From Lophium mytilinum (Eukaryota), in NCBI GenBank assembly GCA_010093605.1, contig MU004201.1, positions 342,289 to 406,288 on the forward strand: a stretch of 64,000 bases of DNA. Direction: 5' to 3'. The position numbers and the translations under genes were made by a program. The notes under the pieces are model-generated. The model saw only the letters and a list, made by a program, of their open reading frames with translations, did not search any database and was not told the DNA's origin. Position 1 is the first letter of the stretch; each line of letters begins with the position of its first letter. This document shows, one piece after another, positions 26,215 to 50,886 of this stretch.

Positions 26215-26582
26215 TTAGAGGAGTTTTTCGACATACACTTTCTCATGGTCCGAGCGGCTCTCGATAGCCGCAGCGGCTTTCTTCTTCGGGTTCTTGCGGG
26301 CCCTCTTCGGGGTCTCGTTGCCCTGTACGCTGGCATTCTTGCGCTTCTTAGGGGTGCTTGAAGCGGTGGAATCGGCGACCTTAGCTATCGGGGTGCTGTA
26401 AAGTGTATCTAGTTAATACAGTTAGGTTCTTAAATTAGCCTGCTAACTAGCAGCCATGAAGATCTAGGGGCATGTAATGGTCACTTACAGTCGTTTCAGC
26501 GGCGAAGCATTGCCAAGCGAGAGCAGGAGGGCTCGTCTCTTTCCCGTATAGGCTCGACGAGATTGCTGGTTAGAACCCCATG
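26215..26582 (-). pseudogene. Small basic two-exon protein with NLS-like tail
   Basis: Exon 2 reads STPKKRKNASVQGNETPKRARKNPKKKAAAA. GTAAGT donor near 26488. Confidence 0.4.
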
Positions 26583-26749
26583 GAGCCTGGCTTTATAGGT
26601 CTATCTATAGAACCTTACAGGATCCGTGGAGATCCTTACAAGTTCCGTGGAGATCTTTACAAGTTCCGTATATTCTAGAATAGTAAACACTGTTTATAGC
26701 CAAACTCGACCACGCTATAAGTATATTTAGTAATACTGCTTTTGCTGCA

Positions 26750-29130: not shown

Positions 29131-29299
29131 GGCGGGATGTGGAGAGTATGGTAGTTAATTAAGAATTTGGTAAGCGATGTTCGCCGCCGATAGATTAATG
29201 ACGACCAAAACCCCAACTTAGAAGCAAGATTCTGTTAAGCAGCTAGTACCTATGTCCGTGGCTATATAGTAAAATGTAATTCTTAATGAAAGACATTAT

Positions 29300-30180
29300 A
29301 CATGATTTTACAGCGACAATGACTACATACTATCTTACCGTCTTTTCCAGCCCGAAACACCGGCGGACCGTCTTAGCATTAGCTGCATCTTTCCGGCAGG
29401 ACACGTCTGCTCCTGCACCGGCTCTTTATAACAACAGCCTATATGGCCTAGAACTCTCCCTCTTTATGCTTAACTGGAAGTCCTCTATAAATCTTCGAAC
29501 CGTTAACCGCTCCGGAGCAACACCGCCTTCCAATTCTCTAGTCTTGACCTCTACAAGAAACTTGCAGTCTTAGCCAGAGCAATGGTTTATCGTCCACGCT
29601 ATTAAGCTAAGCAGAATACTACTTGCGTAGACTCTAATTATACCCACACTCTAAGCCATTAGAGGCTATCTTATAGAACGGGTCACATTAGCAGTTGCAA
29701 CAGCTTAGTTATTGCACGGGGGACACTTTACAAGCAGTTCACTCGGCCTTGTTTAGGAGCTTTTAGTGCGGTCTATGGAAGCCGTTGCGCATTTTATAGA
29801 AGCCATCGGGCCACTTCATGCAGTCATTAACATGCATCTTAATTAACTCGTCCGACCAACCATCAATAAAACCCCCGCGACTGTCCTTATAATTCTTCCC
29901 ATATTCGCGGCCTTCTACATCTTAGAAAAGGTAATTCGTTGCCGTTAAATACACGCATATAGTCAGGAGATGGCGCTTTAAGGAAGTATGACGGAGGTGC
30001 CGATGGGGTGGAAAAGGACGCGGATTAATGGGGCTCGTAGGTATTTACGATTGTCGATTTCTTGAAGGTTAATGGGCATGTGTACTGGGAAGGCGTTTCG
30101 TCCTTGTTGAGTACGCGCGTGTTAGGGAGGCATATCGGAGAGGTAGTGCTGTAGGGATTCATAGTTGTTAATTTTATGAA
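29300..30180 (-). pseudogene. Cys-rich (Zn-binding) hypothetical protein
   Basis: Read-through ends in ERCS*C*DGPPVFRAGKDGKIVCSHCRCKIM, with further CxxC pairs upstream. Confidence 0.35.
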
Positions 30181-30749
30181 TGTTGATAGCTTGTATTTAT
30201 AACTGCCGCATCTTTCCATGACCCCTAATTCATATACTTTCTAAGTAAGTAGTACTAACCTGTAATATGTACTGTAAACTGCAGGCATAGAAAATTAATA
30301 AACAGCAAGCTACAGTAGAGAGGGCTAGTATCGTCGGCAAGCTTGGGACTACTGAGTTTTCCGAGCAAATTCAGTCACGTGATATGATCTTCATGGCAAG
30401 TTCCGTACCCCTCGAAATAGTAAGACGCCGCTACACTGCTCTTGACAGGCTATCTTAAGTATAATTTTTCAGCGTATTAGGTCAACGCCAGCGACTTGAA
30501 TTATACCGTACCGTTTTCCACCCCTGAGCGAGAATCACCCACCACCGAGAACTTAGTATGTAGTAATTTTGATGGAGCGAGCCGCTAGACTAAATACTGC
30601 TTAAGCGAGACCCTAGAATGTATAAACCCTTCCTTCTCTTCCATCCATCTCTATTATTTCCCCTGCTAGCTAGCGCTAGGAATGCTCATCTGCACGCGCT
30701 CAACGCATATTATTGCTGCAGCCTAATCATCTTAGGCGTTCTTGCAGGG

Positions 30750-31900
30750 TGTAGAATGGACTTAGCTACGTTGAAGCGAGGTTATATGTACTTAGGCGCA
30801 AGACTAAAGCGCCGATGAATGTAATCACGCTGTTGCTACTACTCTAAGAGATAGACCCGAGCTATAGCTCAAGGTAGAAAACGACAGCGACAATTACCTA
30901 AGCATCCATCGCTCACTGGAAATGAAAGCTGCGTTGAAGGAATAGGTGGATGGTTCATTTACTAGATCTGTCTTACTTTGCCTTAGAGAATCCATAAAGC
31001 AATTGTAGCATTAAACAGAAGCTATAGATTCCTTAAGAATATTAACGCCCTATTTATAAGTGGGTCTTCTCCGCTCACTGCTCTCCGCCACCTCCCATCT
31101 TTGCGCAGACCTAACTCTCTGCAAGACCACTTTATTATGCGTACTAAACTTCTTATTATGTTTATTATCGTCTTGGCCGGTAAATCCTTTTCTAAAGTAA
31201 TGGACCAGTTTAATAAAGCTACTCACCCTAGAGCTATTTGCGGATACCTTAGTATAGTGTTGACTGACCTGGAAAACATTATGCGCAAAGTCAACTAGGC
31301 TCTCACCAGCACGCCCAGCCGTCCCCTCTCGCTATTTAGGACGGTAATTCGAAGTCGTTTACCTAATTCGCTTGGAAGATTGTGTTAGTTACTTGGCCGC
31401 TCTATTATTGCTTGCAGGAATACGTCCGCACTGGTGTATCCCGCGTTGGATGCGATACACTGGGTCATATCCTTTGTACTCAGACTGCTCGAATGGGCCC
31501 TGGGTCTATTGGTAGCTGCAAGCATCCAGCGTGTAGTTATAGTCCTTCTCCCGTATATTGCGCTTAAGCTTGTTTTTTGGGGTTCTTTCATGCCTGCTTT
31601 GGGTAATCTGTCTACCATTTCGCCTCTGTCGAGCCGTCTACCGGGCCGTCTACTGAAACTTGAACTCGGAGAGCTTAAAGTCGCGCTATCAAGAACGGGC
31701 ATGGAGCATGTACGGACGACTAATAGTTATAGGTGTTGGGAGAGATTCTTTTTTCCACCAAGCGGGGCCCATGTAACCGAAAGAATGTAGTTGAAATGCC
31801 AAGTTCTATCGCCATCTTAATGTTCCGTAGGTTACGCTTAAGCTCGTTCTGTGGATAATTTCGTGGATCCTTTTCGCAATCTGCATTCCGTTTTGTCTTC
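30750..31900 (+). pseudogene. Hypothetical protein with hydrophobic segment
   Basis: ORFs 31101-31298 and 31434-31790 are in the same frame, separated by TAG stops. Confidence 0.35.
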
Positions 31901-32299
31901 TCTAAGGTTTACCTAGCGGACTTAGACAACCTGAACTCGCGTCAGTTGAGGATGTAGAAGGAGCTTGGAATGCCCCTAGTGTTTTTAAGGGTATCGGCGC
32001 CCGAGGAGGGCTGGTATGTCACTAAATTAGTAGCGGTAGAGTAGTGATTGGAATGACAAACTCTATTAGTATCTTCGCGCGCAAATACTTCTGATCTGTA
32101 TCAGCCTCTCTGACCTCTTCCCTCCTTCCCTAGCTCTATCTGTATTCTATAGACATCAAATTTAAGTATATTAGCGTTTAGGAATATCTAGTCTACAAAA
32201 CCCTAATGCGCCTTTAGCATATCCATTATTCTTATAAGTGTGACGGCCTATGGATCATTAAGATACCTCCTTATTTTCTGCTATTCCCTTCTGCTCTAG

Positions 32300-33850
32300 A
32301 AGTCGTGGCTCCCACTGCGTTAGTAGGTTGTACCACTTTTAAAGACCGAGGTGATCTGGCCCTCTACCGCAACGTGCGGTCCCCCGCCTGTCTGGATTCT
32401 TCTAAATCTCCTTAAAGAGTTCCCGCAGTTTTTTGAATACCTCTGTCGAAGAGTCGAAGCCGTTCTTAAGGTTAAGCGTGTGAGCGCGTTCTCGAGAGGC
32501 TCGAATGCCTATCTCGTTGCGTCTGTCTATTACAAACAGGAGGCCATATTCTCGCGATGTAGGATGCTTGTTCAAAACACTCTAATCGACATAGATAATC
32601 TGCAGCGGCCCGCTCCAGTACTCTACATCCTCTGGTTTTCTACTAATTTCTTAAGTCTCTATTAAATTTATACGAAGTCTGGACGTTCTAGGGGCGATTA
32701 ATCTAGCCCTAACCAGGTGTACAGGTATTAAGAGGACTAATTTATCGCTACACGGAGTATACATGTTAGTATGTAAGAATCTTGTAAAAATAAGGGAGCT
32801 TGGCCTACTTTATCCACTTAAATTTACCTTCCAGTATTGCACAGCTTGCTATCTATCTTTCCACTGTGTCTTTACTCTATTCTTTTATGTAATTGTCGTT
32901 TGAATCTTGCTGCGCCATAAGTAAGCAGGATTTGCTGGCCCATTTTTGAAAATGGTAACTTTCCACTAGTACTGGTACCGCCCTTAAAATATAGATGAGT
33001 ACTAGTAAGTAATAGAAGAGAAGGATATAAAACCTACGATGGGTACTATCTTGGCTATCTTGTCCGCTGCTATATAGGGCAGCACTATTTAGAGATGTTG
33101 CTATGCATGGCATATAATAAAATGCCCGACGGTTTAAAAAGCTTCCTTCTCGGCCTGTCATCCAAGCGCTATGGATCACCTTCTTAAATTTTGTCGCCCT
33201 TTCTGCATCAAGCTCATCTTTCAATGCTCCCTGGAATAATCGGTCTATTTAAGTCGATAGAGCAAGATGCCTGCAAAGGTCCTTCAAATTGCTTTTAGTA
33301 TTTGTAGCGTCCTTTATTCCTGGGACGCTTCGGCGAAATTTAAGAATGTGAAGAAGGGTAGCATAATACTGCTGGTCTTGTAGAAAGTTTAATGCAACCT
33401 CTAAGAACTTGTTCGTGCACTCCTTAGCTTTCTTTAAGCATGCTTGGCACTTCTTTTTACTGGCTGTAATTCTGCACTAATTTTGTAAAACGTCCCGTAG
33501 ACACTAGTCGCAAGGGCAGAATAGGTTTAGAACCCTTAGATTCATCTTGGCCTAAATATGTGTAAGCCTCTTGTCTATAAATGCTGTGACCCTCTTACTA
33601 GGCTTAATAGAGAGTGGCGCTCTTCTCCGCTTCTTGCTAGGTCCCTTTAGTTTAGACTAATTCTCTTCTTTTAGTCTGAAAGATGATAGAGCTTGAAAGG
33701 ATAATGTGGATTAAATTTAACGCAGGCAGCATACAGTAGAGAGCGGCATGTAGTCGTGATAGATAGATATAGGCATTAGAGCAAGCTACGAAGCTAATAG
33801 CTATATAAATCACTAGATCAGCGAATGGGATAACGGACAACCCCTGTGGA
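32300..33850 (-). pseudogene. Multi-exon protein with N-terminal basic patch and Cys cluster
   Basis: SKKRRR followed by CPCD*CLRDVLQN*CRITASKKKCQACLKKAKEC (Zn-cluster-like spacing), in frame with ORF 32877-33224. Confidence 0.35.
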
Positions 33851-34252
33851 TTTAGAATTGTGTGCGAGGTCGCATGCTCCTGCTAAACCGCACTGCCGTG
33901 CAACGCATTTTGAATCATGTTTGATTCTATGCTGGTAAAAACGATAACCCTCTGCACGTGTTTGCGATCGTTTTTAGGAGTTTGTCGAGGCAGATTGTTT
34001 AAATAAGCTTGTTCGATAAATTAATAGCAAATCAATTACTTCTAACGTTTGATTGCCTACTTCTTGGATTGATTGATTGCCGTATTCACAAATTTAAAGG
34101 CTAGAGACCAGCTAGCTACTCGCGCTCCTTGTACGCATACTCTATCGCTTCATTCTTATATGCACACGAACTTAAAGTAATCGCATTCGAGCACATAGAA
34201 GAGCTATTGTTGGCTTAAGTTTATAGTTTCTGTGAGACCCTAGCATCCGAAG

Positions 34253-35145
34253 ATGTCTTCTGAAGACTAGCCTGATTAGAATTACACAAAACAACTATGG
34301 GTGCGAGATCGCGTTACCGCAGCCTATTCTTTCTGGATTGGCAAAATTCCACTTGCTGCGAATGCGAAGCCGGCGGAGCACTCCTCTTCCTAGAGATCGA
34401 TGGCCAACATCCTTGCGGTCAAGGGTGGTATACCACTCACAATTGGACTAACGAGGAGAAATGGAACTAGAGAAGTTACTGAAAGCTTCTAATACCCTTG
34501 GATCCTGCTAAAGACCTACATGACTGGATGACGAAGAAAGGTGTGCTTCTCCGGCTAGAGGCTTAAATGAAAGATTCCGATTTAGTATCGCTTTGTTTTC
34601 GTTATAGCCCTGGGCAAGTTCTCGCAGTAGAAAGACCCCTAAAATCTCTACCGTTACTTGTATCTCCACATTTCTTTTTCTTCCTTAGCAATTGCGACAC
34701 CTAAAGGTACTGCGAATCCGGCGGAAAAAAGCCTCCATTCTACTGTATCCCACACACTGAAATTGAGCTCAAAGACGGAAACAATACACGCAGTGACACT
34801 TGGGTTGGAGATCTCTACAAATTATTCTTTTCCGGTTTCTTATTTAATATAGAGACTGGCATACTTAAAACAGGCGTTTATAAGGGCTGCTATAAGCTTC
34901 GGGGCTATAAAACGGCGCTCGGTCTGCTTAATAGGACCCTGGAAGGTCGCAGCGAGATAATAATGGAAACTACGAATTTTCGGACACTCATTAAGGTCTT
35001 AAATTACTTGGTAACCTGCCAAGACCTTGCTCGGGCCTGTACAGCCGTCGGTATCCTAGGGAATCCTACCCCAAAGGCTGGAGAGGTAGAAGGAGAAGGC
35101 GAAACCGCACGCCCAAAGGTCGCAAAAGGTAGAGAAGAATGCTAG
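34253..35145 (+). pseudogene. Degenerate hypothetical gene
   Basis: Long read-through frame ending in ORF 34963-35145. Confidence 0.3.
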
Positions 35146-36129
35146 GAGTAAGGGGTAGTGTTGGCTAGAAGTGTAGTTTTATAGGAATAGACTGTATATA
35201 TAACCCGGAGAGGGCATTACATGTATCTACTTATAATCTCAGGGCTCTACGTCCACATTAATACACGTACCAGCTCCTATTATTATAGGTTGTGAATGCT
35301 AAATGCGTGAACTTTCACCTGTATTTACAAGGTCGAGGCTATATCTCTGCGTTGGCCCTACAATACGCAGGGTTCTAGACAACACCACGAGGAGGTTAGA
35401 GGCCAATTTTATTATCTGTTTACAGACATTAATATACTATTATGTACAGCTCAGCACGGTGCATCTAGGCTTAGCAACCGTGCGTGGACCCTAGCGTGCG
35501 AAGGGATAGTTCTCCTTGCTCCTAGGGCTGTGAACAAGATCAGATAGCGGCGTTAAGTGGCGCGCTCGAGATTTTCGTGTAGATGTGGGCCTTAGAACTT
35601 GAGGCATAATTTAGCCTTGAAATGAGTAAATTTAGTTGCGAATTGATGTTGTGTAGTTTATCTAATATTAATTTATAAGAATCGAATTAGGGGCTACTGT
35701 ATACTCTGGCAATAGTAAGACGCCAGGCTTGGCACGCTTCAAGGGGGGTGCAAGGGGGGTGATCGGCAGGTAACGTAGTGTAGTTTAGTGTATAGATAAT
35801 GGATAAGAATATCACATTAGATTTTCGCGAGTCTCCTTATCACCCGTTTCCACGCCCACAACCTTACTACTAAAACGTCGCTTTTTGATTGTATATATAT
35901 AATAAGAGTTGTAGAGCTCGCGATTTCCTATTAATCGCGCTTGGAATTACGAAAATCGGATTAAAATTGAGACGTAGATAATTTTCGGTGTAATCTCCCT
36001 GGGGTGAACGTGCGGGTAGCTAATAATCATAAACAATAACAAACCCCCTTTTTTTAACTTACCTCCATCACTTTACTATAACTTCCTTAATACTTATCAC
36101 TATACCAAGTCCTTTTGTTCTGTGATACA

Positions 36130-36710
36130 ATGCCTCTCCAAGAACTAGATCTAAACGTTGTTTCCGGCCGATCTCTAAAGCGACCGGAGAAATCAATCAC
36201 TCAACGAATGGGACGAAAAAGATGGAATTAGACGCTAGGAAACTTACTAAGAGATCTACGCCTAACAAACGAAAGCTTACGTCGTATTCTATCACCAAGA
36301 AGCTCTAGGTTCTTACCTGGTGGCACTAAACCCGGATAGAAATTAAACCTCACGAGAGGAACTATATATTTCCGGGTTCACTTCTCTACACACGGAATTG
36401 TAACCTACGGAAACCAAAGTTTAATAAGGCAGAAGCCTTCTGGAAGATTGCTAGGGTAGATATAGCTAGATGGTCGTTGCAGAAGGATTTACTCGTATAA
36501 AGCCTCCGTTCTGGCCGCAGACTAGCTTATGTGGACTACTCTTGTAGATAGAAAGAACTCGAAGAAAGGTTGTATATAGAGTTTGCAACTGCGCGATTAA
36601 GGCGCCAACAAATTTGCCTTCATTAGTTCCGCAGGCGCTCAACGGAGCTCTTCAAAGAGGTCTATCCTAATGAGGAAGAGAAGTTAATTCTACTAATGGA
36701 ATCTGACTAA
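36130..36710 (+). pseudogene. pogo/CENP-B-type HTH DNA-binding region (transposase N-terminus, no DDE domain seen)
   Basis: KRKLTSYSITKKL*VLTW ... DIARW ... (W)KELEERLYIEFATARLRRQQICLH*FRRRSTELFKEVYP. Confidence 0.5.
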
Positions 36711-36940
36711 GATTGAGCGTGCTGTTAGCCCGCATGCACGCCGTTAATCTATCCAAAGCACGTAACTATTGCTCAATAATTGGCCGAGTTACTGCTCTCT
36801 AGCAGATTCATGGCAAGACTGCGCGCAGCCGTTCCGCAGACTTCCCGTTTTGTGTAGTCTATCACGAAAAAACTTACAACTCATTTAAATTTTCATCAAC
36901 CTTGTTCATTTCTGGACTAAATTGACCGCATTTGTCTAAT

Positions 36941-37430
36941 CTATTCACTGTCCAAAGCAGAACTCCACGCGACCGTTGTGGATGTAGGAATCTGTGCCTT
37001 GGAACTCGGTAAAATATGCACCACCATTGTACCAAACTTCATCTTCCGCTTAACACCCAGGCGACTGTCTAGACGCTTGTAGTCTCTGCCTAGGCGTGTT
37101 ACACGTCCAACAACACGCCTGCCAGCGCGCAGGCGCGTGTTAATAGGCACGCGATTCTCTTCCTTCACCCAACCTCGGTGTCGTCCCTTAGCATCTTAGA
37201 GAGAGATCCCGGGACCTCTAGATGCATTATATGTCTAATCTGTAGGCTGACGATAGATAAGGACATACTCCTCATCTATTTTAAAGCGTGGAGAATCGAT
37301 ATAGTTATATGTAGCATCTACAAGATAAGAATTAGTAAAGTGATGCATGAGAAAAGTAGAAAAAACACGTACGAACTGCCTCAAATTCCCCCAAGGCGAT
37401 TGGGGCTTCATTCACGGTTGCATAGGCCAT
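36941..37430 (-). pseudogene. Small protein with HIRAN-like signature
   Basis: YVLIYRQPTD*TYNASRGPGISL*DAKGRHRGWVKEENRVPINTRLRAGRRVVGRV; GTACGT intron ~37323-37371. Confidence 0.3.
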
Positions 37431-37638
37431 TATTAAATGGAAAGATACATAGATTTAAGTACGTTTATATAGAGGATTGATGTACTAAGGCACCGAGCGG
37501 GTGCGGCGGATGAGGAATTAAAATTAGAGCCCCCTACTAGCGCTGCTAAGCCTAGCGTCTCACTATTGCGAAAGTATACGGTATTTAGAGTTAGGGCCCG
37601 TGCCTTAAAATCGGAGGTTATTCCTCCGCAGTAGAGAA

Positions 37639-37799
37639 TGGTCAGCCCCTGTACGGGCTGCGCTGGTCAATGCTTAATTAAGGGATTTTGACCCTTGTTC
37701 AGCACTGACCCGCACAGCCTATGCAGGGGGGAGATTGTGTACTACAGAACCCCTTAAATGTAAGCACGGACCTGCACAGCCCGCACAGGGGCCCGACTA
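37639..37799. mobile_element. Degenerate MITE-like inverted repeat with an extra internal arm
   Basis: 37639-37690 (tggtcagcccctgtacgggctgcg..aagggattttg) is an imperfect reverse complement of 37745-37799. A third arm lies at ~37692-37742. Confidence 0.6.
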
Positions 37800-37802
37800 T
37801 AC

Positions 37803-37920
37803 TACACTCTCCCGCCCTGTATGGACTGAACACGACCGTGCGTAGAATAGGGGATTTTACATACAAAACCCCTTATTTTGCGCACGGTCGTGTCCAGTTC
37901 GTACAGGGCGGGAGAGTGTA
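37803..37920. mobile_element. 118-bp palindromic MITE with TA ends (Tc1/mariner-type)
   Basis: Arms 37803-37858 and 37865-37920 are near-perfect reverse complements (tacactctcccgccctgta...tacagggcgggagagtgta), with a 6-nt loop. Confidence 0.85.
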
Positions 37921-39016
37921 TACAACACGCGAAACCTTTAGGCTCTAGGTAGGCAAGGTACTATGAATTCTACTCTACGGGCACCGGCCTAAGCAGTTTC
38001 TCTAAGAACAAGAGCGGCTGGACGGAAGATAGGCTGCGCAATGCTAATGTTCGTGCTGTCCGAGCGCTGGACGTACCGGTGCAGGTGCCACTTTAACTTT
38101 TTTTAAACTTAATTATCTACCCTGCTCGGTCCTGCATCACCCCGCGCGCGCTACCCTCTCCCTTAATCTATACATGCGATCCACCCTATCTATCTAGCTT
38201 ATTAGCTCCAACTGTACTTAGACATCTACTCTCTCTATTCTTTCCTATTATAAACTCTTACCTCCGCTAACTTTACCAGCTTCATTAGCTAACCTTCTCC
38301 GACGCTCATTATCCAACTGCTCATCCTACCCTCCTTACCCTCCTTACTATCCTTACCCGCCTTACCACCTTTATTAGCGGGCCTTCTCCTGCATTCAGTT
38401 ATCTACTCGCTTTTCCCACCCTCCTCATCTACCCATCTAATGCACCCCTCTGCGTGTCCGCCAATTAACGCCCTACTTCCTTCTTGTCTTCAAAGCTAAG
38501 CTATTTAGGGGCCGCCGGTCCACTTTAAGCTATCTCTACAACTCCTCCGCTATCTAAGTCTCTGCCATGTAAACCTTCTACGCTATCTATATCTTCTAAA
38601 TATTCCCGCGTTACGTTGGAACGCCCTCTAACTGGTCTTACCCTACTGCATATACACGATTGCGTCCGCTTCAGCCAGCTTTAAGAGTGCTTTGGCCTTC
38701 CCTCTACGTGTGGAATATCCTCGTCTACAAGTACGTCTAAACGAAAAGCCAGGGTGTGTTATCTTTAACACCGAACAAGGCCAATCTATCCTCTTTTAGA
38801 ACCCCCCTTTATGCGCTAACAATTTTTATAGCAGTCTCTAACTAATTCAACATCCTCCACGCGGCTTTAAAACTTGTCGGAAACTAGCCAATAAGCTCAT
38901 TAACCCAAAGCCCTCTATCCTAGATTTGCCCCGCCGAAGTCCTTTTCAAATGCACTTCCTCCAATTCATCGCCTCGTTAAAGTGTAAAAATTTCCGCTCC
39001 TGAATCTTATTACAGC

Positions 39017-41780
39017 ATGATGCCAATACCTTCAGCGCTGTCCCGCAACGATGAGAAGAGATATTTGCTACCATTACCCTGGGAAGGTGTTACCCCCCTA
39101 CCTAAAGATGACGAAATTGAAGTTTGTTCTAAGGATCTTTGGGAGGACTATGACGCCCGCCTTAAACTTGAAATTCACCTTGGATCTTCTAACGAGACCG
39201 ATGAATTAGAAGTGGACAAATACTACCGGGTGTGCGGCGACTATTGGCATCGGCAGTCCTACCTCAAGAAATAAACTAATAAGCTTAAATCTACCAATGA
39301 AATATCGGTTGTCAAGGTAATACAAGCAGCTTTCGAATCAGGTAGCAGCTTAGACCCGCCGGCATACTTAGTTATGTGGCTACTACAAGCTAATAAGATC
39401 CATGCTGTTAAGGATAACTTCAGCCGTAATGAATATATGCTTACAAATATTCTAAGCCTGCTACCTCGCGCTTCCTTCATGCCTTTTAAAGAAGAACTCA
39501 GCCTACGGCCATGGTCGATATTGCACGAACAGAACCCTAACGTAAGCGATTTCTACTACTATCGCACTGGAGCAATCTATTCCACGGAAGCTATCTGGAC
39601 CGACTACCGATTTCTACATTGTACGGTGTGTAACGCTGTAATTAATCCAGATACGGCATATTCCCACTGTATTAGTTGCGAACTTACTTTCCATAATAAA
39701 TGTGTCCTTCCCGAAGGGTTCGTGGCTCAGCTTAGTAATAGCGAGCTTGTGTGTCTAAATAAGAACACCGGCGCAGACTATAAACCTGTAGAGTGCCCTA
39801 CTCCTACATGCAATGGTAAAGCTATACAACTTCCTCCTTAGCCCCGCATGCCATCTAAAACCCTACGAATTTGTGGCGACTTCGGCATAAAAGGTGTCCG
39901 TATTACCTTATGTATTATTAACAAAGACGCTTAAGAAGCGAAAACACGTTACATGGAACTCCGTCCATCTTCAGAGGAGAAATATTATTCCACGTGTGCT
40001 ATAAGCGTTGATGAATTGTCTCCGCCAAAGTATTCCGCTAAAGTGTTAAAGTGTGGTAGTATCTATTCTAAAACGGATTTTATTATAGTCCCGTTGAAGG
40101 CATTATTTATTACTTTATTACATCGTTTAAAGCTAATAGACGCAAAACTCGATCTAACCTTGGCCCTAATAGAAGTGTTCAACGAAGTTGTTCTTAAGGT
40201 AGCTAAGGGACGAGTTGACACCTGCAACTATGTTACGAAGTACAAGAAACCGAACAAGGCGCTGAAGGTAGGCTGTGTACCTCGGGAAGACCTTGAGATC
40301 TGCTTTGCCCGGCCTGCATTAATGAAACCCGAAGAGCTTACGGAGCTTCTTACGTCCATGAAAAGAATAGCTCAACGCGTTATTAATGTGGATGAGCCGT
40401 GAATGGCCTTTTACTATTTGGTTAACAGGACTACTATTACACCCGGCTTTTATATTGTCTACGATATTGGCGCTTTAACAACCGTGGGTTCCCCTCTTCT
40501 AGCTGGACTAGTGTAACCCTGCTAATTAATGCGTGTATGTATAGGATGCGGCGGTTATTAAGTACACTCCTAATAGTCCCCACCCAATAATGCGTATTCG
40601 TGTCACTCATTCAGCGAGTTTTCCGTTGGGTCAAGATCATATAGATTAAGCCATTGTAAAGGACTTATTGCCATCTTATAAAGGTCATTAAACATTTTAC
40701 AATGTTCTGCGCAAAGTTCGGGAGCTAATAGACACCCAACTAAAAACAGACCGACTAGTAAAAGAAGTGACTTTCGGCGTTAACAAAATTAACCTTGTTC
40801 CCATGTATAATAACCGCCAAGAAGAACACTTTTTGAAACTTCTTCCACATCTAGAGGGCTTTAAGAAGTGGCTAAACAAAAAGAGACGCACCTACGAAAG
40901 GGTATACCTCTGCGGCGGAGGGGCCAACGACGAAGGCATAGTTGAATTGTTCAAGAGGGTGCATAAAGCTCCGCAAGTAGTTGAGCTGGTTCCTATGTAG
41001 AGTAGAAGGTAAGTTCTTTCCATGCCGATGCTTAGGTATGTGGGAGAAGCTTGCTAATTCTGTATAGCACTAGCCAAGTCTTACTAGGCCAGCAAATGTA
41101 TCTAGACATTTTCGAAAAGAATAGTCTTTCACCGATTTCCGTGTTCGTGGAACAAGACGCCGAGAAGGGTAGGAAGAAGGAGTACATTCCCCTTATCGAG
41201 AAGGGGGAGCCATATATCTCTCCGAAATTAATATCTACGCGATAGAGGCCGTAGAAATGGCTTCTACTACACGTTAAACCGGGGACCACAGGGGTCACGG
41301 ACTCTGTATTTAAGCTCTTCGGCTTGGAGACGGATATCGCGACTAAAGGGACATCCGGAACCGTGGGGAAAGGATTAGAGATGGTTACCAACGCGCAGGG
41401 ATTTCAAGTTGTCTAATCGCCTTTGAATGACAAGTATGTTCTGGCCGAACACAATTTTCGAATCCCGAAGAAGAAAGACTTTAACAGCAGGAAAGATGAG
41501 CTATATAATCTCGTAAAGGTAACAATAGACGTGCCTGCAGGAGTAGTAAGCCTATATTGCGTCTTTGCATCGCAACCTATAGGATTAGGCTATATTCACG
41601 AGGACCTAACCAAAGACGTAATAAGGGACAACCCTAACATCCATATGTAGGCGAGGGTGGATAAAACAATATCCCTCCAAGTCTAGCCAAGAATAGAGTT
41701 TAATTTTGCAACGGCGACTATAGATGATTTTGTCCAACCGGAATTACTAGAATACCAGGAGCCTATGGATGCGTCTTAGG
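39017..41780 (+). pseudogene. BAH-like + PHD finger + Hsp70/actin-like ATPase fusion
   Basis: ORFs 39017, 39374 and 39953 share one frame. BAH-like YLVMWL..FSRNEYMLTN..FYYYR; PHD CTVC..CISC....HNKC..CPTPTC; then ICGDFGIKG, VDEP, IVYDIGALTT and VYLCGGGAN (Hsp70 NBD motifs). Introns ~40484-40544 and ~41009-41068. Confidence 0.7.
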
Positions 41781-42886
41781 ATATACTATCTAGTAAAGAT
41801 CCTTAACCCTCTTACGGGACTGCTGTCAGTCAACAGTATACCAGGCGAAAGGCAACCCCAACATTATCAAACGCGTCAATAAAACGTCAACGTCAGGCGT
41901 AAAGCTTCTTATCTATCACCCTTGGTCAGTTACGTAATTAGATAGACATCTTTCTCCGGCTATTACTGCTGTCGCCTCTTCTATCCTCTAGTCATTTCAA
42001 TTTCGAGATTGGTTTAAAGATTTTGGGATTCGCAACTTCAATATCTTAAAACTGGTGTACGGTGCTTCAGTACTCTTGTAACTAAACTAAGCTTGGGGTC
42101 TTAGACGGCCTAGGAGTCTTTAAACGAATATATGGACGCGGAGCTATTATAAATTACAATCCTTATCTTAGTCCTATTTGGTCTTGTGTTTAGGCATCCG
42201 GGATAGATTTTAGTTGCATAAAGGCTAGGAGTGGACTCTCTCTACTCTTCTAGGTGTTCTTTATATACGATCTCAAGCGCGGAGGTTTTTTGTCCTAGTC
42301 GACGACGCGGGTGTATATGGCGAATCTCGACCTTTATTTTAGTTTCTTAATCTTAGATCTTGGTAATAGGCACGGATTTGAGTTGTATTCAGGCTGAAAG
42401 TAACTTCTCGCTTGGACTAGGAATGACCTTCCTTAAGCCTCCTAGGTATTTCGGAAAGCCGCAAATATAGATTATAGAGAGCAAACTTATAAAGACAACA
42501 TCGTGGTCTAAATTCCGCAGCTACTGTAGTAAGGTAGGCTGGTGCTCGTATACGAGCGACACGTAATAAGCGTTTAGGCACCTTCTTAATTACTAAGAGC
42601 AGCGCCCTATTAGATATTATGTCCTCTTCTTATAGATTCGGCCCTAGGCAGCACCGCGGTTACGGCCTCTTCTTTAATATGATACAAATATAGTTATCTT
42701 CTTCCACTCTCTAGTAACTAAATCTATACTTCTATAATTATCCCGCCCTCTACTACTACACTACTACTACTTCTAAGTCCTACGGTATTAGTGTAGGCGT
42801 GCCCATGCCGAGATGGAGACTAGCTAGAATATCTACCTCGCAAGTAGAAGAGTAGTAAGATTCTCCACCTAACTTCTACTCCTCTT

Positions 42887-45800
42887 TAGGGCTGCCGTTT
42901 AATCACCCAGGTGACCCAGTGATTGAAGTGATTGACGGTTTTGTTAATCACTTTAATCAATTGGCCATTTGGAAAAGGTCCAATCAATCAATATTAAGTG
43001 GCCTATTTTGTTAAAGTGGGTGATTGATTGACAGTACAAAGTTATATAGGTTTGGTGTTGTAGTTTGGCTCGGAGGTCCGCAATCCTCAGCCTCTAATTG
43101 GTTTGCTGACTAACTAGCCTACAACTATATACTCGCCATCCTTATACTTGCTATTTTCTGTTTATACTTGCTATAAACTGTATACTTGCCATGAACTGTA
43201 TACTTACCATAATCTGTATACTTCCCGTTTTGCGTAGCCTTGATTTATCGCTAAAATGCAGAGTTTTCACAATGGCTTCTATACAACAGCACCACCACCG
43301 CTATTTTCATCGCCATTGCCCCTATACTTATCGCCGCCCTCCTCATCGCCGCTATGCCTCCTGCCGCACGCGGCCGTCGTGCTTAACGTCCTTAGCACCG
43401 TAATGCACGCCGTGCTCATCCTTATCCTCCTGTTGCCGCCGCCCCCAACAAATACAATATTCCATCCCGTTCTCTACGCCCTCCTACTGTTGCGCCTACG
43501 GATGAAAACGCCACCATCGTGCTATAGGAAGCCGTAAAGCTAGACTAGAACACAATGTATAATGGAATTAATTGGAATCGCCTTGCTGGCTTTTATTAGC
43601 CTATACAGACTGCCTTTACGCTCTATGCCGAGTCTTGGTTTTATGGCTACGACATCTACAAAGAAGCAAATGGTAAGAGGTACTGGTGCTGCAAGATCTG
43701 CCATTGGCAAAGGGCTCATAACCGCTATATCTATAGTAATGGAGGAACAGATAACTACAGGAGCTATCTAGCAAAACGGCATGGAATTTTCATCGGCCAG
43801 CAGGCGCAGGAAGGACCTAAGAAGCTTTCAGTAATAGAACAACTCAAGCTAAGTGCATCACAACCAGCCGGCCAAAGGATAATCAACACGATTATCCGTG
43901 GCTTCCAGCCGAACCATTTTTTCTAGCTTCTCATTCAATGGCTAGTACACGCAAAGATGCCATTCCTAGGTGTGTACAGTACAATTTACGGATGCACAGC
44001 ATGCAGGCGGCAGGCTAACACGTTCTAGCTATTGAGAATACCTACTTCCGTGCCCTTCTTACCTACCTCAATGATGCCGTAGCAGTAGGCGACTGCCTGC
44101 TAGGTCGTACTTCTATTCGTACAATGGTAATGTCAGAATTCAATCGCCATTAGAAAACGGTCAAGAATCTACTTAATACTGCGCCCGGAAAGCTACACTT
44201 CTCAATGGATATCTAGACGGCTTGCAAGTAAAAAGCACTACTAGGTATTAATGTCCACTTTATAGACGCTGCAGATATATACCGGTTAATGGTTCTAGCT
44301 TTGCCCAAGCTGCTGGCAGAGCACGGTGGCGTTAATATTAAGGACGTTGTTGTACAGATCTTCCAGGTACGTATTTAGCCTTCCCAGTTACGTTTAGCCT
44401 TCCCATTTACGTTCAGCCTTCTATATACTTGCTATTGTGCAGCCTTTGCTATTGTGCAGCCTTCTACATACTCTCTATTATCGTGCAGCCTTCTGCATAC
44501 TCTCTAGATTGTTCAGCAGCCGACGTACGTCTCAGCTATTTGGAATTCGCCAGGAGCAGGTCGGCTACGTTGTTGCTGACAACGCGACGAACCTTGATAC
44601 ATTCCTACGCGAGATGGCGTCCTTTGGCATCAACGAAACTAAACAACGGCTGCGTTGCCTTAGGCATATTATTAACCTTGTAGTCAGCGCACTATTTACA
44701 GGCGAATGGGAGGGAGAATTCGTTGAGGATCACGACTACAACCTGATGGACGAGCAGACGGTAATAGAGCTGCAGGTAGGAACTTGTCGAGGATCACGGC
44801 TACAACTTAATGGACGAGCAGACAGTAACAGAGCTACAGGTCTAGCGTTGCATTGGCCCAATTGCAAAGCTTCGCCACGTCACGATGTAACTGTTCGACG
44901 GCGAGCAGTGCATGCGACGCCTCACTGCGCACCAGATAGAAGCTGGCGAGAAGAAGAGCCTCTTGCCTATTAAGCCGGTGACCACGAGATGGAATACGCT
45001 TAAAGCAATAATGGAACGTAGTGTAAAGATACGAGCATCTCTTAATGCAGTAGTTACGGAGGAGGTAATTAGTACGTCTGTCGCATCCTCAGCCTTGCCA
45101 TCCTTAGCCTTGCCATCCTTAGCCTTGCCATACTCTATATACTTCCCGTTCTCTGTTTACTAACGTTGTGATAGAATGGAACACGTACTGGACTACTATC
45201 ACCCAAAACGGCACACGATAAGCGCCCGCCAGGCGACGCACCAAACTAAAGATTGTTAACCAGTACCTCTCGGATGACGACTGGGTTGTAATTATATAAT
45301 ACCTAGAGCTCTTGAAGCCATTCAAACTTGCTACAAAGCACCTTAAAGGTCGGATCTGTAAAGAGAGGAGTGGTTCTATATGGGAGGTGTTGCCTACGTT
45401 CGAAAGCCTATTAGCTTATCTTGAAAGGAGCAAGGTCACGTATATTATGCACCCGGAAACGCACTTTAAAAACAGCATTAATCTAGGTATGTATACCGTG
45501 CAGCCTTCCCGTTTCATACTCATACTTGCTATACTGTGCAGCCTTTCTGTTTTGTGTGCACGGCTAACAAGCAACAACAGGTTAGACGAAGCTTGATGAA
45601 TACTACTGCCTTACCGACCGCTCACCAGCATATATTACTGCTATTATTCTTTATCCTGCGCACAAGTGGGCATGGGCAGAGAAGAGGTAGCCAGAAGAAT
45701 GGATCGCACCAGCTAAAGCGAAAGTGCTGCAGCTATAGGACTTAAAATACAAGACTATAGCGGTTGTTAAAGCTGTTCCTCCAACGCTAGAGGCATTAGC

Positions 45801-46493
45801 TAATAACGATGAATGGTTTAGTACTAGCTTTACAAGCAGCTTTATAAGTGGTACAACGCTATTAACACTAGGCACGCCAGGTGCAGGTCGTGATGATGAA
45901 TATACAAGGTGGCTTACTCGTGGAAATTATTGCGATGATATCCGGGTAACCAACCCAATACAATACTGGGCTCAGCTTAAAGGCGAATTCCCCCGGCTAG
46001 CGCGGATGGCTCTTAATCATCTGCCCGTTCCTGCTATGAGTATGTCTAATGAACGAGACTTTAATCAAATAGGCCTACTCTGGAACCCGAGAAGATCCGC
46101 CTTGCATGCGAATGTTGTTGGGGCCTGCATGTCGCTCTCTTTATGGGACAAAGAGGGGGTAATTGATATGCTAGATGGTGGTCTTGTGCGAGGAAACCAA
46201 CTAAAGCGACGTCGAGCTGATACAATTGAGGACCCTGTTAAGAATGAGAATAGCGACATAGAAGAGGATACTGATGAAGATGAGGATAGAGATGAAGATG
46301 AAGATGAAGATAAGTAGACTCAACACCACGGCTGTGAACTTGTGCCAAGAATCTCTACTTTTACTTTGTCAATCAATTAATCACTTTAATAATTGATCAA
46401 TCACTTTAATCACTTGCGACCTCTACTGACTAAGGCGTCACTTCAATCAATATCGGATGGCCCAATTGATTGATTGAAGTGACGGTAGCCCTG
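42887..46493 (+). mobile_element. hAT DNA transposon copy B, full length, mildly RIPed
   Basis: Termini tagggctgccgt / acggtagccctg. Perfect 8-bp TSD ctcctctt at 42879-42886 and 46494-46501. Subterminal TGATTGA/TCAATCA repeats. Confidence 0.97.
43272..46317 (+). pseudogene. hAT transposase (BED zinc finger, DDE RNase H fold, dimerisation domain), 5 introns
   Basis: WCCKICH..KRHGI (BED), HFSMDI*T, YVVADNATN, RLRCLRHIINL, PVTTRWNT, LPVPAMSMSNERDFNQ and an acidic tail; a few in-frame stops. Confidence 0.92.
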
Positions 46494-46884
46494 CTCCTCT
46501 TAAAACTGTGCCGGATGCACCTTACTCGTCGGCGTTATATATATGCGCATAACGGGCAGCTCGAGCAAGGCTAGAGAGGTGCAAGGAAAGCTGCGCAGAG
46601 TTGCAATATAGCGGGGGGGCTGGAAGAATAACGGCCGAGTTCTTGGAAACTCCATAAGTATAATTATTATAGAGGAGGAGGGTTTCTAGACGCAAAATAT
46701 ATTTAATATATAAGTAGGTATAATAGTAGATAATTAAGGAGGACGCTGTTAAGAAGATAGAGAGCTTTTCCTCCCCTAGAGCGCTTATTAACGGCAACCT
46801 AAGCGTGTTAATAGCTGAGCTTGTTAAATATAGAGTAGTCCTTATATCCTGCTAAGGCGGATACAGAGGCCACACTATATGTAA

Positions 46885-47605
46885 AATATCTAGCCGTGTT
46901 CCTAGCATTAGGTACATTAGTAATCTAATTGCGCGTTAGTACTAGTAAACTAAGTTAGCTCTAGCTTAATAGTCTAGCGCTGATTTCTATAAACCTAAGA
47001 TATCTATTAGGGTTTCTACTAGTTTACTATTAAGTATATAAAAGTCTTAGAGGACTTTATAAGTAAGCGCTCTTTATAGGAGCCTAACTATATAAGTCTA
47101 TTAATCTTAAATAATCTATATACCTAGGTAGAAGGGGTACTACCTAGATTAATTTTTTTAGACCTTTCTAATAGTGCTGCGTTACTTTATTTATATTTAC
47201 TAGGCTTAGGCTAGCTATAAGTAGATTATCTATATAGATAGCGATAAAGTAGACTCTTTAATAAATACTCTAGTATCTAATATTATTAGTTTAAGCCCCA
47301 ACGCCCTAAAGAAGTCTAATAGTAGCTAGTACTAGATTCGGGCTAATTATATAATATTATAGAGCGCCTTATTAAGTTTATACACCTATATAGTACTGCT
47401 AATATTTAAGCTAGTTAGGTTCTTAATATAGATTTCTTTATTAATATTGCTATATAGAAATGCCGTCTTAATATCTATCTAGTAAATCTTAAGGTCTATA
47501 GCGGCCGTAATTATAAATAGCGCCTTATAGCTTTTCGGCTTTACTATAAGTGCGAATGTTTTATTATATTTAATTCTCTCCTGCTACTTAAAACTATAAA
47601 CGGCC
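46885..47605 (-). mobile_element. Ty1/Copia reverse transcriptase fragment, heavily RIPed
   Basis: Reverse complement reads close to FK*QERIKYNKTFALIVKPKSYKALF..DLKIY*IDIKTAFL and AIRLLMYLMLGTRLDI, matching RVT_2 motifs after RIP reversal. Confidence 0.85.
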
Positions 47606-47622
47606 TATTCCGCCTAATACTT

Positions 47623-47975
47623 AAACTTAGGGGTATAGATAGATTTTAATTTACTAGAAACGCCCCTTTAGCTATAATTTCAAACTTAAGGATATAGAAA
47701 GATTCTACTTTACTAGGAATACCCCTTTAGCTAAAATTTAAGCTTAGGGGCATAGAAAGATTTTACTTTACTAGGAACGCCCCTTTAGCTATAATTTAAA
47801 CTTAAGGATATAGAAAGATTTTACTTTACCGGGAATGCCCCTTTAGCTAAAATTTAAGCTGGGGGCATAGAAAGATTTTACTTTACCGGGAACGCCCCCT
47901 TAGCTTAAAACTTAAGCTTAGGGGAATAGAAGGAATTTACTTTACTAGAAACGCTCTATGCCCCCTTAGCCTAAA
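47623..47975. repeat. 58-bp tandem minisatellite, 6 units
   Basis: Unit starts at 47623, 47682, 47740, 47798, 47856 and 47914. Core tagaaagattttactttactaggaacgcccctttagct. Confidence 0.95.
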
Positions 47976-47984
47976 GTTAATTTT

Positions 47985-48780
47985 AAATTAGTACTATATG
48001 TATAATAAACTAAATATATTCTAAATATACTTAAATACTAAATAATAAATATTCTAAATAGACTAGTACTAAGTGCATTATAAATTAAATATACTCTAAA
48101 TATATCTAGATGCTAAATAATAGATATTCTTAATAAAATAGTACTATATATATTATATATAAAGTATATTCTANNNNNNNNNNNNNNNNNNNNNNNNNNN
48201 NNNNNNNNNNNNNNNNNNNNNNNNNNNNNNNNNNNNNNNNNNNNNNNNNNNNNNNNNNNNNNNNNNNNNNNNNNNNNNNNNNNNNNNNNNNNNNNNNNNN
48301 NNNNNNNNNNNNNNNNNNNNNNNNNNNNNNNNNNNNNNNNNNNNNNNNNNNNNNNNNNNNNNNNNNNNNNNNNNNNNNNNNNNNNNNNNNNNNNNNNNNN
48401 NNNNNNNNNNNNNNNNNNNNNNNNNNNNNNNNNNNNNNNNNNNNNNNNNNNNNNNNNNNNNNNNNNNNNNNNNNNNNNNNNNNNNNNNNNNNNNNNNNNN
48501 NNNNNNNNNNNNNNNNNNNNNNNNNNNNNNNNNNNNNNNNNNNNNNNNNNNNNNNNNNNNNNNNNNNNNNNTAATTAAACTAGTACTCTTGCTATTATAT
48601 ACGAAATATATTTTAAATTTATCTATATACTAAATAGTAGATATTCTAAATAAAATAGTACTATATATATTAAATAAAAGATGTAATTTAAATATATCTA
48701 GATGCTAAATAATAGATATTCGAATTAAATTAGTACTATGTGCATTATATATAAAATGTATTCTAAATATACTAAATAAG
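47985..48780. repeat. AT-rich ~75-bp tandem array interrupted by an assembly gap
   Basis: Palindrome tagtact recurs at ~47989, 48064, 48140, 48581, 48656 and 48731, with shared atctagatgctaaataatagatattc. Confidence 0.85.
48174..48571. other. Assembly gap (398 N)
   Basis: Run of n; the same repeat lies on both sides. Confidence 1.
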
Positions 48781-48895
48781 GGGTTCTAGTATACCCCTTT
48801 CTAACTTATAGTATACCTCTTTTTTTTTATCTATCTACACCCCCTTATATCTAATCTTATAATTAGCCTAGAGGGCTTAGATTACTACTCTAACG
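48572..48895. repeat. Left arm of long inverted repeat
   Basis: gggttctagtataccc..cacccccttatatctaatcttataattagcctagagggc is the reverse complement of 58285-58400, and similarity continues into the 75-bp array. Confidence 0.9.
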
Positions 48896-50886
48896 CTTAG
48901 AGTAGGCAGGTCTTACTATTTTATTATATATTCCTACCGTTTCTAGCAGGCTATATACAGCCGCACGCTGCGCGTAAGCTATAAATAAGGCTGTAGATGA
49001 GGCTATCAACAAGGCCGTGCATGAGGCTGTACTTATAATAAAGCTATATAGTAAACCCGTTTTAATATTTATACTTCCTGTTTCCTACAGTATATATAGG
49101 CCGTTGTAACGCTACTTATATGCCTACATGCCTACGTGCCTATAAGTAAGTTGAAACTATTAAATCCTTACCTTATTACGGCCTTTCCGCATTAAGTCTG
49201 GCCCCCCTACATCGCCACTGCACCCCCCTAGCTATCCTAATCTATAAACCGCTCCAGTTCCTGTTTATATAATGCTATCTAACGTTAGAGCGTCTTAAGA
49301 GTAAGCCGCGCTGGCGCTGCCCAAGGCTGAGGAGTAAGCGAAGGCTGAGGATTGGCCTGAATTTATCATAATCCGGCATGCTCGCATCCGACTAAGCAAC
49401 GGATGGAGTTCTCTGCGGAGGACCGGGAGAGTCAGCAGCAGGATAGAAAGATTGCATGGGCTGCATGGGCTGCTGCTAACATTTATCCGGAGCGTTCTCA
49501 ACAGAGGCGGGCTGGTAGCCGCCAGGCTGCTGGGCATGTTGAGCTTAAGGCTGCTGAGACTGCTGTTGAAACTGAGGCGGCTCTTAGACCACCGGGGCCT
49601 GGTGCTGCATAATAGGAGCGTTCGATGGCTACCCTTGCGCATTTAATGCAGCGTCGGGTCGATTATAATCCAAGGCGTAATCTACCATTCCTCATTAGTA
49701 CCGATAGCTATTCGCAGGTGGGTTGAAAGATGGTGGTCCTTAATAGATGGCGCAAGGACCAAAGGTAGTTGGGTAATCGTGAATAATGGGGGGAGCCGTT
49801 ATAGGGGCGGAGCTAATAGTTCAACGGGAGCAGTACTTTGCTCAGCCTGCGAAGCCAACGTTAGATTAGATGGATTGATAGACATGACGCCTTCTTAGGA
49901 GAGTCTTTAAAAGAGTTCTTGAAGACTATATCGAGCTGGTCGAGAGCGATGAAGATATTAAGAGCTTCTACCAGATAGAGAGAAATCACGACGGGGGTCT
50001 CAGGACATTTAAGAAAGAGTAGGAAGAAGTGATGATAGTAATACGATCGAAGCAAAGAATAAGGAAAGGTGCTATTGTGATAAGGATGTGCTTCTTCCTT
50101 TAATGGCTTTGAGTTCTTATCGGGGAGAAGGCCTCTCCTCCGCTATCCTCACGTAAGGATTTCCAATTGCCGTAAGACTATCGGGCTTTGTTAAGCCACG
50201 ATGTCAGGTTCTAGTCATTCTTCTCGCCTTCCTGCTATCGATCTTCCACGGGCAGTTGGCAGAAAGCGTAGTCAGTTGTGTAGCTGTGTCGTAGGAGTGT
50301 TATAAGGGATAAGACAAATCCCTTTATAACGCCTAGCTGGGCGCCCTTTAAACTTATGTCGTTCCAAATATCATAAGGAGGCTCACGACCTAGATAGGAT
50401 AGGTTACAACGCGGCTCGTTTGCGTTGTAAACACGGCTCGGTAAGTTGTTGAGACGGCTTGGCAAGTTGTTTAGTATGTTGTTCTTAGTTTAAGATCTAC
50501 CGATCCTGGAGCTAAGTTATTTAGCTTCGGCCGAAAGGGTATCGTAAAGAAATAGCGCTTAGCTAGCTCCTAACTATTAAGTTCACTGACTTGATAGCCC
50601 TCCGAGGAGGCCGAAGAGGCGGCTGGAAACTGCAACTAAGCTACTAGATGTGATTTCTTCGATCACGTGATGCAGGAATAAGCTCTCGATTTTATATAAA
50701 GAATCTAGCTAGGTATATACACGAAAAAAAGGCCCGTGCAGACCCTATATTTACTAGATCTAGTATGGCAAATATCTATTCCAGATCTATACGTTACGTG
50801 CATAATACACCCGAATGTTAACTGTATATCGAGAATTCCACAATAGTCTTACCACGGTGTGTGTCGGTGAATTCGCGTTCCCTTTG

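Follow-up and report, generated by a model that had tools for sequence, protein, structure and literature searches.

A relic of a probable fungal gene in Lophium mytilinum, altered by repeat-induced point mutation and putatively encoding a PHD-like zinc finger joined to a divergent actin/Hsp70-fold domain

EPR-1 of Neurospora and BP1 of Fusarium are described as BAH-PHD readers of H3K27 methylation (10.1101/868117, PMC8501951). A different term of comparison is represented by genes inactivated by repeat-induced point mutation (RIP) in the repeat-rich compartments of ascomycete genomes; the leaking of RIP from repeats into adjacent single-copy DNA is documented (PMC9453070). The locus analysed here occupies positions 39017 to 41779, on the forward strand, of a stretch of 64,000 nucleotides (nt) from Lophium mytilinum (assembly GCA_010093605.1, contig MU004201.1, positions 342,289 to 406,288), the whole of which is referred to as the window. 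It is probably what RIP has left of a lineage-restricted, protein-coding gene of a fungus that is present once in the genome at a likeness of at least 80%. An initial annotation had described it as a BAH-PHD histone-reader module fused to an Hsp70-like ATPase; its observation was partly confirmed, and its interpretation partly supported. The locus resembles RIP-inactivated genes in being covered by a single contig, in its RIP-type composition, in its TAA and TAG stops and in the RIP-diverged repeats adjoining it, and it differs from cases of RIP leakage in that no gradient extends from its flanks. It shares with EPR-1 and BP1 a PHD-type finger placed after a region of about 200 residues; it differs from them in that BAH is not detectable, and in an ATPase-like domain that they are not described as carrying.

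The three-frame translation of positions 38981-41800 revealed a single coding frame that switches twice. The spliced model (39017-40483, 40545-41008 and 41068-41779) comprises 880 codons followed by a terminal TAG, and is composed of the following parts:

39017..40483, + strand: exon 1, 489 codons; N-terminal region, PHD-like finger and first half of the ASKHA-like domain
40484..40544, + strand: intron 1, 61 nt, GTGGGT..CTAAT..TAG, canonical fungal signals
40545..41008, + strand: exon 2, 154 codons plus 2 nt; remaining half of the ASKHA-like domain, with VYLCGGGAN at 40902-40928
41009..41067, + strand: intron 2, 59 nt, GTAAGT..CTAAT..TAG, canonical fungal signals
41068..41779, + strand: exon 3, C-terminal part of about 237 codons, weakly supported as coding; terminal TAG at 41777-41779

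The coding frame of exon 1 contains four stops in 489 codons (39272, TAA; 39839, TAG; 39932, TAA; 40400, TGA) versus 23-50 in the five other frames, and that of exon 2 contains three in 154 codons (40647, 40689 and 40998) versus 7-14. Exon 3 is interrupted internally at 41243, 41252, 41414, 41648 and 41684 and gives no Pfam match at E<=10; the original stop of the gene may have been located earlier than 41777-41779. Since stops are depleted in one frame, and this frame switches at two canonical introns, the former coding frame is real; it is also dead, and the gene, which carries 12 internal stops (five TAA, six TAG and one TGA), therefore cannot act now. The frame with two introns noticed in the initial annotation was thus borne out by stop depletion and splice signals, whereas the single TAG reported there becomes 12 internal stops, and the end at 41780 moves back by one position, because the last codon of the model closes at 41779. 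An alternative genetic code was ruled out, as TAA, TAG and TGA are all found in frame and the whole window is devoid of long open reading frames (ORFs), with only 13 stop-free frames of at least 150 amino acids (aa) in 64 kb. Just upstream of the ATG, positions 38000-39000 form a CT-rich tract with a strong excess of C over G (GC skew -0.24 for 38001-40000), which may be a pyrimidine-rich promoter or leader region of the kind common upstream of fungal genes. An acceptor-like cttattacag directly precedes the same ATG, and an upstream exon may exist.

The damage bears the marks of RIP. TAA and TAG account for all but one of the 12 internal stops, which is what codon reasoning predicts, because a CpA-to-TpA change in CAA, CAG or TGG would produce just these. 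Over the whole gene TpA/ApT is 1.25 and (CpA+TpG)/(ApC+GpT) is 0.87, both on the RIP side of the usual thresholds (above about 0.89 for the former and below about 1.03 for the latter). When the region from 39000 to 41999 is divided into six segments of 500 nt, the first index is at least 1.06 in every segment and the second is lower than 1.03 in five; at this resolution the RIP-like composition is even over the gene, with no gradient from either flank. The copy number was then assessed on the contigs of two DNA runs (X1 and X2), aligned to positions 36000-44000 at a likeness of at least 80%, which delimit the following regions (no strand assigned):

38136..42407: single-contig stretch; flat depth due to one contig of 5893 nt (37517-43409) in both X1 and X2, at a likeness of at least 80%
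36000-38135 and 42408-43742: multi-copy, RIP-diverged flanks, from the contig depth in X1 and X2

Compared with the window, the flank copies of X1 show 122 changes, of which 105 are C>T (54) or G>A (51), and those of X2 show 76 C>T and 72 G>A among 181 changes. Hence both the compositional indices of the gene and the C:G>T:A transitions among the copies of its flanks are those of RIP, and the gene occupies a single-contig stretch enclosed on both sides by RIP-diverged repeats. A near-perfect palindrome (37803-37920, with 56-nt arms that are 88% complementary and a 6-nt loop) lies inside the multi-copy flank. Coverage by a further run with a different organism code (X3) is confined to pieces of the repeat at 37488-37898; the palindrome may be a small and widespread repeat of the type of miniature inverted-repeat transposable elements.

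RIP would have come to the gene by one of two routes, which are equally open because no gradient from the flanks is observed: it leaked in from the repeats on either side, or it followed an old duplication whose other copy was lost or is now less than 80% alike. A specific form of the second route is possible, even if on balance unlikely, namely that the gene was carried within a large segment that became duplicated, or within a giant mobile element, and underwent RIP after its own duplication, its partner having been lost or having diverged below 80% likeness. The even RIP-like composition of the gene would fit this idea, as would the RIP-like character of the entire 64-kb window and the other dead genes of cellular type in it (kinesin fragments and an SNF2-related domain). 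Nevertheless, no second copy is found in X1 or X2 at the likeness considered, and within the window blastn and tblastn returned the region itself only; moreover, terminal repeats around the gene were looked for in 34000-47000, and none was found. Lastly, neither a recombinase nor a captain-type domain was detected among the scanned ORFs, and no recombinase or other element-defining gene stands next to the gene among them (out of 156 stop-free ORFs of at least 70 aa the Pfam scan covered 152, all but four at 2224-4126, and out of 443 ORFs of 42-69 aa it covered the 117 that start within 26000-39000 or 41800-47000). The "element" to which the gene had originally been ascribed was thus not found, the gene being covered by a single contig and unaccompanied by terminal repeats.

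If the relic is read as a formerly intact gene, its product would have had about 880 residues, opening with an N-terminal region of about 200 residues. This would have been followed by a cross-brace finger of PHD-like type (aa 202-265), a linker of about 20 residues, a highly divergent nucleotide-binding-type domain of the ASKHA superfamily (approximately aa 280-650) and a tail of about 230 residues. The finger is the following:

39620..39811, + strand: PHD-like cross-brace zinc finger, aa 202-265, recognised from its ligand pattern and from Pfam matches below cut-off

Its ligands are arranged as C202-x2-C205-x12-C218-x2-C221-x4-H226-x2-C229, followed by C246 and by C260-x4-C265. Shuffling the product 100,000 times recreated the six-ligand core once, and the six frames of the whole window contain it once. 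PHD fingers obey the ligand rule C-x2-C-x(8-25)-C-x(2-4)-C-x(4-5)-H-x2-C-x(12-46)-C-x2-C; the first six ligands fit this spacing, and the final pair is C-x4-C instead of C-x2-C, so that the strict pattern is not matched. At E<=0.01 the ORF 39275-39838 has four Pfam matches, each of them to a PHD-like or C1 finger and each below its cut-off (PHDvar_NSD, E 0.0025; C1_1, 0.0035; zf-HC5HC2H_2, 0.0051; zf-HC5HC2H, 0.0081), and the PHD family itself (PF00628) matches the whole exon 1 with E 0.045 and 14.2 bits versus a cut-off of 24. The other scores, with the gathering cut-off in brackets, are 16.6-18.3 bits for PHDvar_NSD (27), 17-17.4 for zf-HC5HC2H_2 (27) and 16.8-16.9 for zf-HC5HC2H (29.1); the power of such profile tests on the finger is lowered by RIP damage. 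In the ESM Atlas, the same ORF retrieved PHD-family clusters at 0.77-0.80, which, being below 0.9, are to be read as leads only. In comparison with PHD fingers (PF00628, PF13832, PF13771 and PF23004), the segment has the same core plus two further downstream cysteines and a C4HC3 composition; it differs in its C-x4-C last pair and in the fact that the C1 domain scores about equally. On the basis of its sequence, the segment appears to be a genuine PHD-like zinc finger with a cross-brace arrangement, its Pfam scores falling short of formal family membership. The C4HC3 PHD finger initially recognised is therefore upheld in its composition and six-ligand core, and not in its last pair or in its Pfam scores.

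As regards the ATPase-like portion, three motifs deserve to be located:

39869..39895, + strand: phosphate-1-like motif ICGDFGIKG, aa 285-293
40385..40417, + strand: connect-1-like DEP motif NVDEP*MAFYY, aa 457-467, with a TGA inside (asterisk)
40457..40646, + strand: phosphate-2 motif, from VYDIGALTTD through PLGQDHID, aa 481-523, spanning intron 1; significant ASKHA similarity

The places of GDFG (aa 287), DEP (aa 459), YDIG..TT (aa 482) and LCGGG (aa 611) agree with those of the initial annotation. The removal of intron 1 joins YDIGALTT to DAAVIK and thereby creates the only significant match of Hsp70 type; because this intron splits the phosphate-2 (P2) motif, searches with separate exons could not see it whole. 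With the exons taken separately, Pfam HSP70 (PF00012) gave no match, and the search of PDB sequences with exons 1 and 2 returned chance matches only (E 0.13-3.3; RhoGAP, ribosomal S10 and others). The top Pfam match of exon 2 is MreB-like_C, below cut-off (E 0.025, or 0.0094 on the ORF 40692-40997), and it falls downstream of P2, i.e., in the order expected for the C-terminal domain of an ASKHA protein; of the two RNase-H-like lobes of the ASKHA fold, it would be the sole hint of lobe II.

The spliced sequence was compared with a profile of the Hsp70 nucleotide-binding domain built on 82 sequences, that is, DnaK, HscA, HscC and YegD of E. coli plus 78 of 80 bacterial and archaeal DnaK loci (the other two of those fetched gave no clean frame and were left out). 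The profile was run with all filters off against the spliced aa 270-660 and 2000 shuffles thereof, and it scored 9.8 bits, a value that none of the shuffles attained (maximum 6.4). The alignment is limited to aa 476-536, corresponding to profile/DnaK positions 188-243, and contains VYDIGALTTD and then LGQDHID. A Smith-Waterman comparison with E. coli DnaK also led to this segment (z = 3.0; four of 300 shuffles did as well). With hmmalign, nine of 134 highly conserved columns were matched, all within DnaK 192-233, versus a mean of 0.49 and a maximum of 6 in the shuffles, none of 300 being as good; the P2 block profile taken separately gave 9.2 bits, again without an equal among 2000 shuffles. 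Searches with single E. coli sequences, in which the number of shuffles as good is given out of 2000, pointed to the same place:

DnaK 171-245 on aa 460-535, with EP aligned on E171-P172: 1/2000
HscC, its own P2 region within aa 453-535: 2/2000
MreB, its own P2 region within aa 453-535: 11/2000
HscA, its own P2 region within aa 453-535: 14/2000
YegD, its own P2 region within aa 453-535: 21/2000

The segment thus displays the phosphate-2 strand-loop DxGxxT(T/F)D and, after it, a helix of (L/v)GGxDxD type. In common with DnaK, HscC and MreB, it has the P2 strand-loop and an LGxxxxD helix start about 30 residues later, and the order and spacing of the P1-like, EP, P2 and GGG motifs (P1 - 172 - EP - 23 - P2 - 130 - GGG) resemble those of DnaK (163 - 23 - 147). 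It differs from ASKHA domains, DnaK included, in that the glycine pair of P2 is replaced and nothing is detectable outside the P2 segment, and from Hsp70 in its N-terminal zinc-finger extension and in that no substrate-binding domain was found (none detected in the exon 3 tail with Pfam at E<=10). The P2 loop, DIGALTTD, lacks the usual glycine pair; this divergence probably predates RIP, because the codons GCT and TTA cannot derive from glycine codons by RIP-type transitions. On the other hand, the ATA (Ile) codon in GDFGIKG could be the RIP product of ACA (Thr), in which case the original would have been the common DFGT. In a low-confidence AlphaFold2 model, ICGDFGIKG lies within a beta-hairpin (E284-291/E294-302). 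As a whole, homology to the ASKHA superfamily, in its actin/Hsp70/MreB branch, is supported locally, at the P2 segment, and ASKHA domain is the safe label. The label "Hsp70" is not established, because a single segment of 55-60 residues carries it and E. coli MreB matches that segment too.

The search for relatives was extended to 1.84 billion representative proteins, among which phmmer, run with the frame-1 read-through (921 aa, with exon 2 out of frame), found none at E<=0.001. Word-seeded searches yielded 7996 candidates for the whole query, none at E<=0.001, and, at E<=10, none among the 6481 candidates for exon 1 or the 160 for exon 2 against longer proteins. In metagenome contigs, none of 103 pattern matches to exon 1 was confirmed, and 195 pattern matches to exon 2 left one supposed relative. 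The latter was rejected, since its 34-residue match had been seeded by the search's own 8-mer; it is embedded in an open frame of 528 aa that looks like a bacterial transposase. The ESM Atlas returned nothing with a family for the ORF 39935-40399. From the 12 stops it can be roughly estimated that about a fifth to a quarter of the RIP-susceptible codons were hit; damage at that level should not erase homology to close relatives, and the family would therefore be narrow and fast-evolving, or unsampled.

Several observations weigh against the reconstruction given above. No homologue from the protein-representative, word-seeded or metagenome searches confirms the architecture, and the search of PDB sequences with exons 1 and 2 matched no ASKHA, PHD or BAH chain at E<=10. 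No PHD-type match reaches its curated threshold (14-18 bits versus 24-29), and MreB-like_C gives 15.6-17 bits versus a cut-off of 27.8. Within the DnaK profile, the P1 block and the connect-1 block (DEP here, NEPTAAA in Hsp70) have no match, and the adenosine block (LCGG here, GGxTRxP in Hsp70), at its expected place, scores -2.9 bits, which is chance level (235 of 2000 shuffles as good). The significant P2 segment crosses a modelled splice junction, which was chosen after the resemblance had been noticed. The AlphaFold2 single-sequence model of exon 1 is unusable (predicted local distance difference test, pLDDT, 33.5; predicted template modelling score, pTM, 0.20). Exon 3 is weak as a coding region: its six stops in 237 codons, the terminal one included, are equalled by one antisense frame. 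Concerning the history of the locus, the missing RIP gradient leaves leakage a conjecture, and the runs X1 and X2 are possibly the source of the window itself, in which case the evidence on copy number is not independent. Thus, of the Hsp70-like ATPase originally proposed, the P2 segment stands above chance and all the motif strings are present, and the P1, DEP and LCGG blocks fail.

The presence of the finger and the ASKHA-like domain in one polypeptide is inferred, and it depends on how the following junction is read:

39839..39850, + strand: TAG, two codons and ATG (cct TAG ccc cgc ATG), with the TAG at 39839-39841 and the ATG at 39848-39850

It might be supposed that a zinc-finger protein of about 274 residues ends at this TAG and that an Hsp70-like protein starts at the ATG, the two being adjacent or bicistronic genes that were both hit by RIP later. 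The arrangement of an ATG two codons after a TAG invites this idea, and the methionine, nine residues before the phosphate-1-like motif, is where a stand-alone protein of Hsp70 type would be expected to start (the P1 of E. coli DnaK begins at residue 6). Yet a methionine retained at this place is likewise expected after a gene fusion, and the gap between stop and ATG is merely 6 nt, a spacing that is unusual between separate genes in fungi and leaves no room for a terminator and a promoter. Furthermore, the finger and the ATPase-like parts share one frame, in which 11 further RIP-type stops occur (about one per 73 codons), so that a RIP stop in the linker is unsurprising. Two separate ORFs are therefore judged unlikely, and the fusion is considerably the more probable of the two; the TAG would be a stop made by RIP inside the fusion, from CAG or TGG. 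The earlier proposal of a finger and an ATPase-like module in one frame holds in that the frame is continuous and the core architecture plausible, and gives way on BAH and on Hsp70 specificity.

Whether the fused ancestor can be called a histone reader depends largely on the region before the finger, where a BAH-like segment had been reported. BAH (PF01426) has no Pfam match in exon 1 at E<=1 or in aa 1-200 at E<=10, the latter scan being limited by the HMMER filters, which drop most matches above about 0.1; the search of PDB sequences (phmmer) likewise yielded no BAH chain at E<=10. The strings YRVCGDYW, LVMWLL, NEYMLT and DFYYYR show hydrophobic patterns that, by eye, may recall the BAH consensus. 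The BAH-like segment was hence not borne out, the database searches returned no homologue in which the envisaged BAH+PHD+HSP70 architecture could be sought, and it is on BAH that membership in the group of EPR-1 and BP1 fails. It seems improbable that the gene encoded a BAH-PHD reader of H3K27 methylation, of the kind of EPR-1 and BP1, fused to an Hsp70 ATPase and serving a mobile element by anti-silencing or tethering. The finger and the ASKHA-like domain in one frame would agree with it, but BAH is not matched in Pfam or PDB sequences, Hsp70 is not separable from MreB or actin-type domains, and the Pfam scans found no substrate-binding domain; in addition, there are no element boundaries, a single contig covers the stretch and the gene is dead. 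Anti-silencing and heterochromatin tethering are speculation, and any past chromatin role would follow from the general behaviour of PHD fingers alone. Among the papers listed by a literature search, none dealt with a fusion of a PHD finger and an Hsp70-like domain in fungi, which is weak evidence of absence.

A broader version of the same idea, rather doubtful although less so than the preceding one, is that the intact ancestor joined a histone-reading module (PHD, possibly with a degenerate BAH-like part) to an actin/Hsp70-fold ATPase in one polypeptide. If so, it would have been a chromatin-recruited ASKHA protein, akin in function to nuclear actin-related proteins and equipped with its own reader, and the combination of a PHD-type reader with an actin/Hsp70-fold domain would represent an unusual route of an ATPase-like module to chromatin. 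Living orthologues might perhaps exist in unsampled relatives, no kin being detectable among the 1.84 billion representative proteins. In its present state the locus is an orphan relic without function in RIP-degraded DNA, chiefly of value because it exemplifies the destruction of a single-copy gene by RIP; it also advises caution, since BAH or Hsp70 motifs called on RIP-damaged sequence need intact homologues before functional stories are built on them. That the locus was never a gene, and consists of frames left open by chance in decayed repeats, in which motifs were picked by eye, is very improbable: the lack of any homologue and the sub-threshold level of all family matches might be quoted in its favour, but in exon 1 the depletion of stops against the five other frames is 6- to 12-fold, the frame switches exactly at the two canonical introns, and shuffling reproduced the zinc-ligand core once in 100,000 attempts and the P2 segment in none of 2000.

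The rest of the window, likewise, is littered with RIP-type relics. A RIP-degraded transposase of the hAT family occupies positions 43600-46314 (+ strand); its C-terminal dimerisation domain is recognised above cut-off in the ORF 45739-46314 (E 3e-10), its N-terminal ORF (43600-43923) is rich in Cys and His with a weak match to Rua1_C (E 0.0026), and in its interior a 62-nt unit is tandemly duplicated (44716-44841, 85% identity). The relic of an SNF2-family helicase extends over approximately 26984-29300 (+ strand), with SNF2-rel_dom near 26984-27442; this domain corresponds to aa 162-314 of the read-through 26501-28000 (E 6.7e-5, 22.6 bits versus a cut-off of 24.9), and a helicase-C-like string downstream of it is visible by eye and was not confirmed by Pfam. 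A dead kinesin-like gene at 12422-12879 (- strand) survives as two adjacent ORF fragments, both matching the kinesin motor below cut-off (E 1.3e-4 and 8.9e-5). The relic of a long terminal repeat retroelement of Copia type is found at 62438-63774 (- strand), where SH3_retrovirus (E 6.5e-7), gag_pre-integrs (E 4e-8) and Pol_BBD (E 1.5e-7) are all above cut-off. Finally, two AT-rich blocks (1-4000 and 46000-50000, with a GC content of 0.31-0.37) hold the strongest RIP indices of the window, with TpA/ApT up to 1.69 and (CpA+TpG)/(ApC+GpT) down to 0.33, and positions 48174-48571 correspond to an assembly gap of N.

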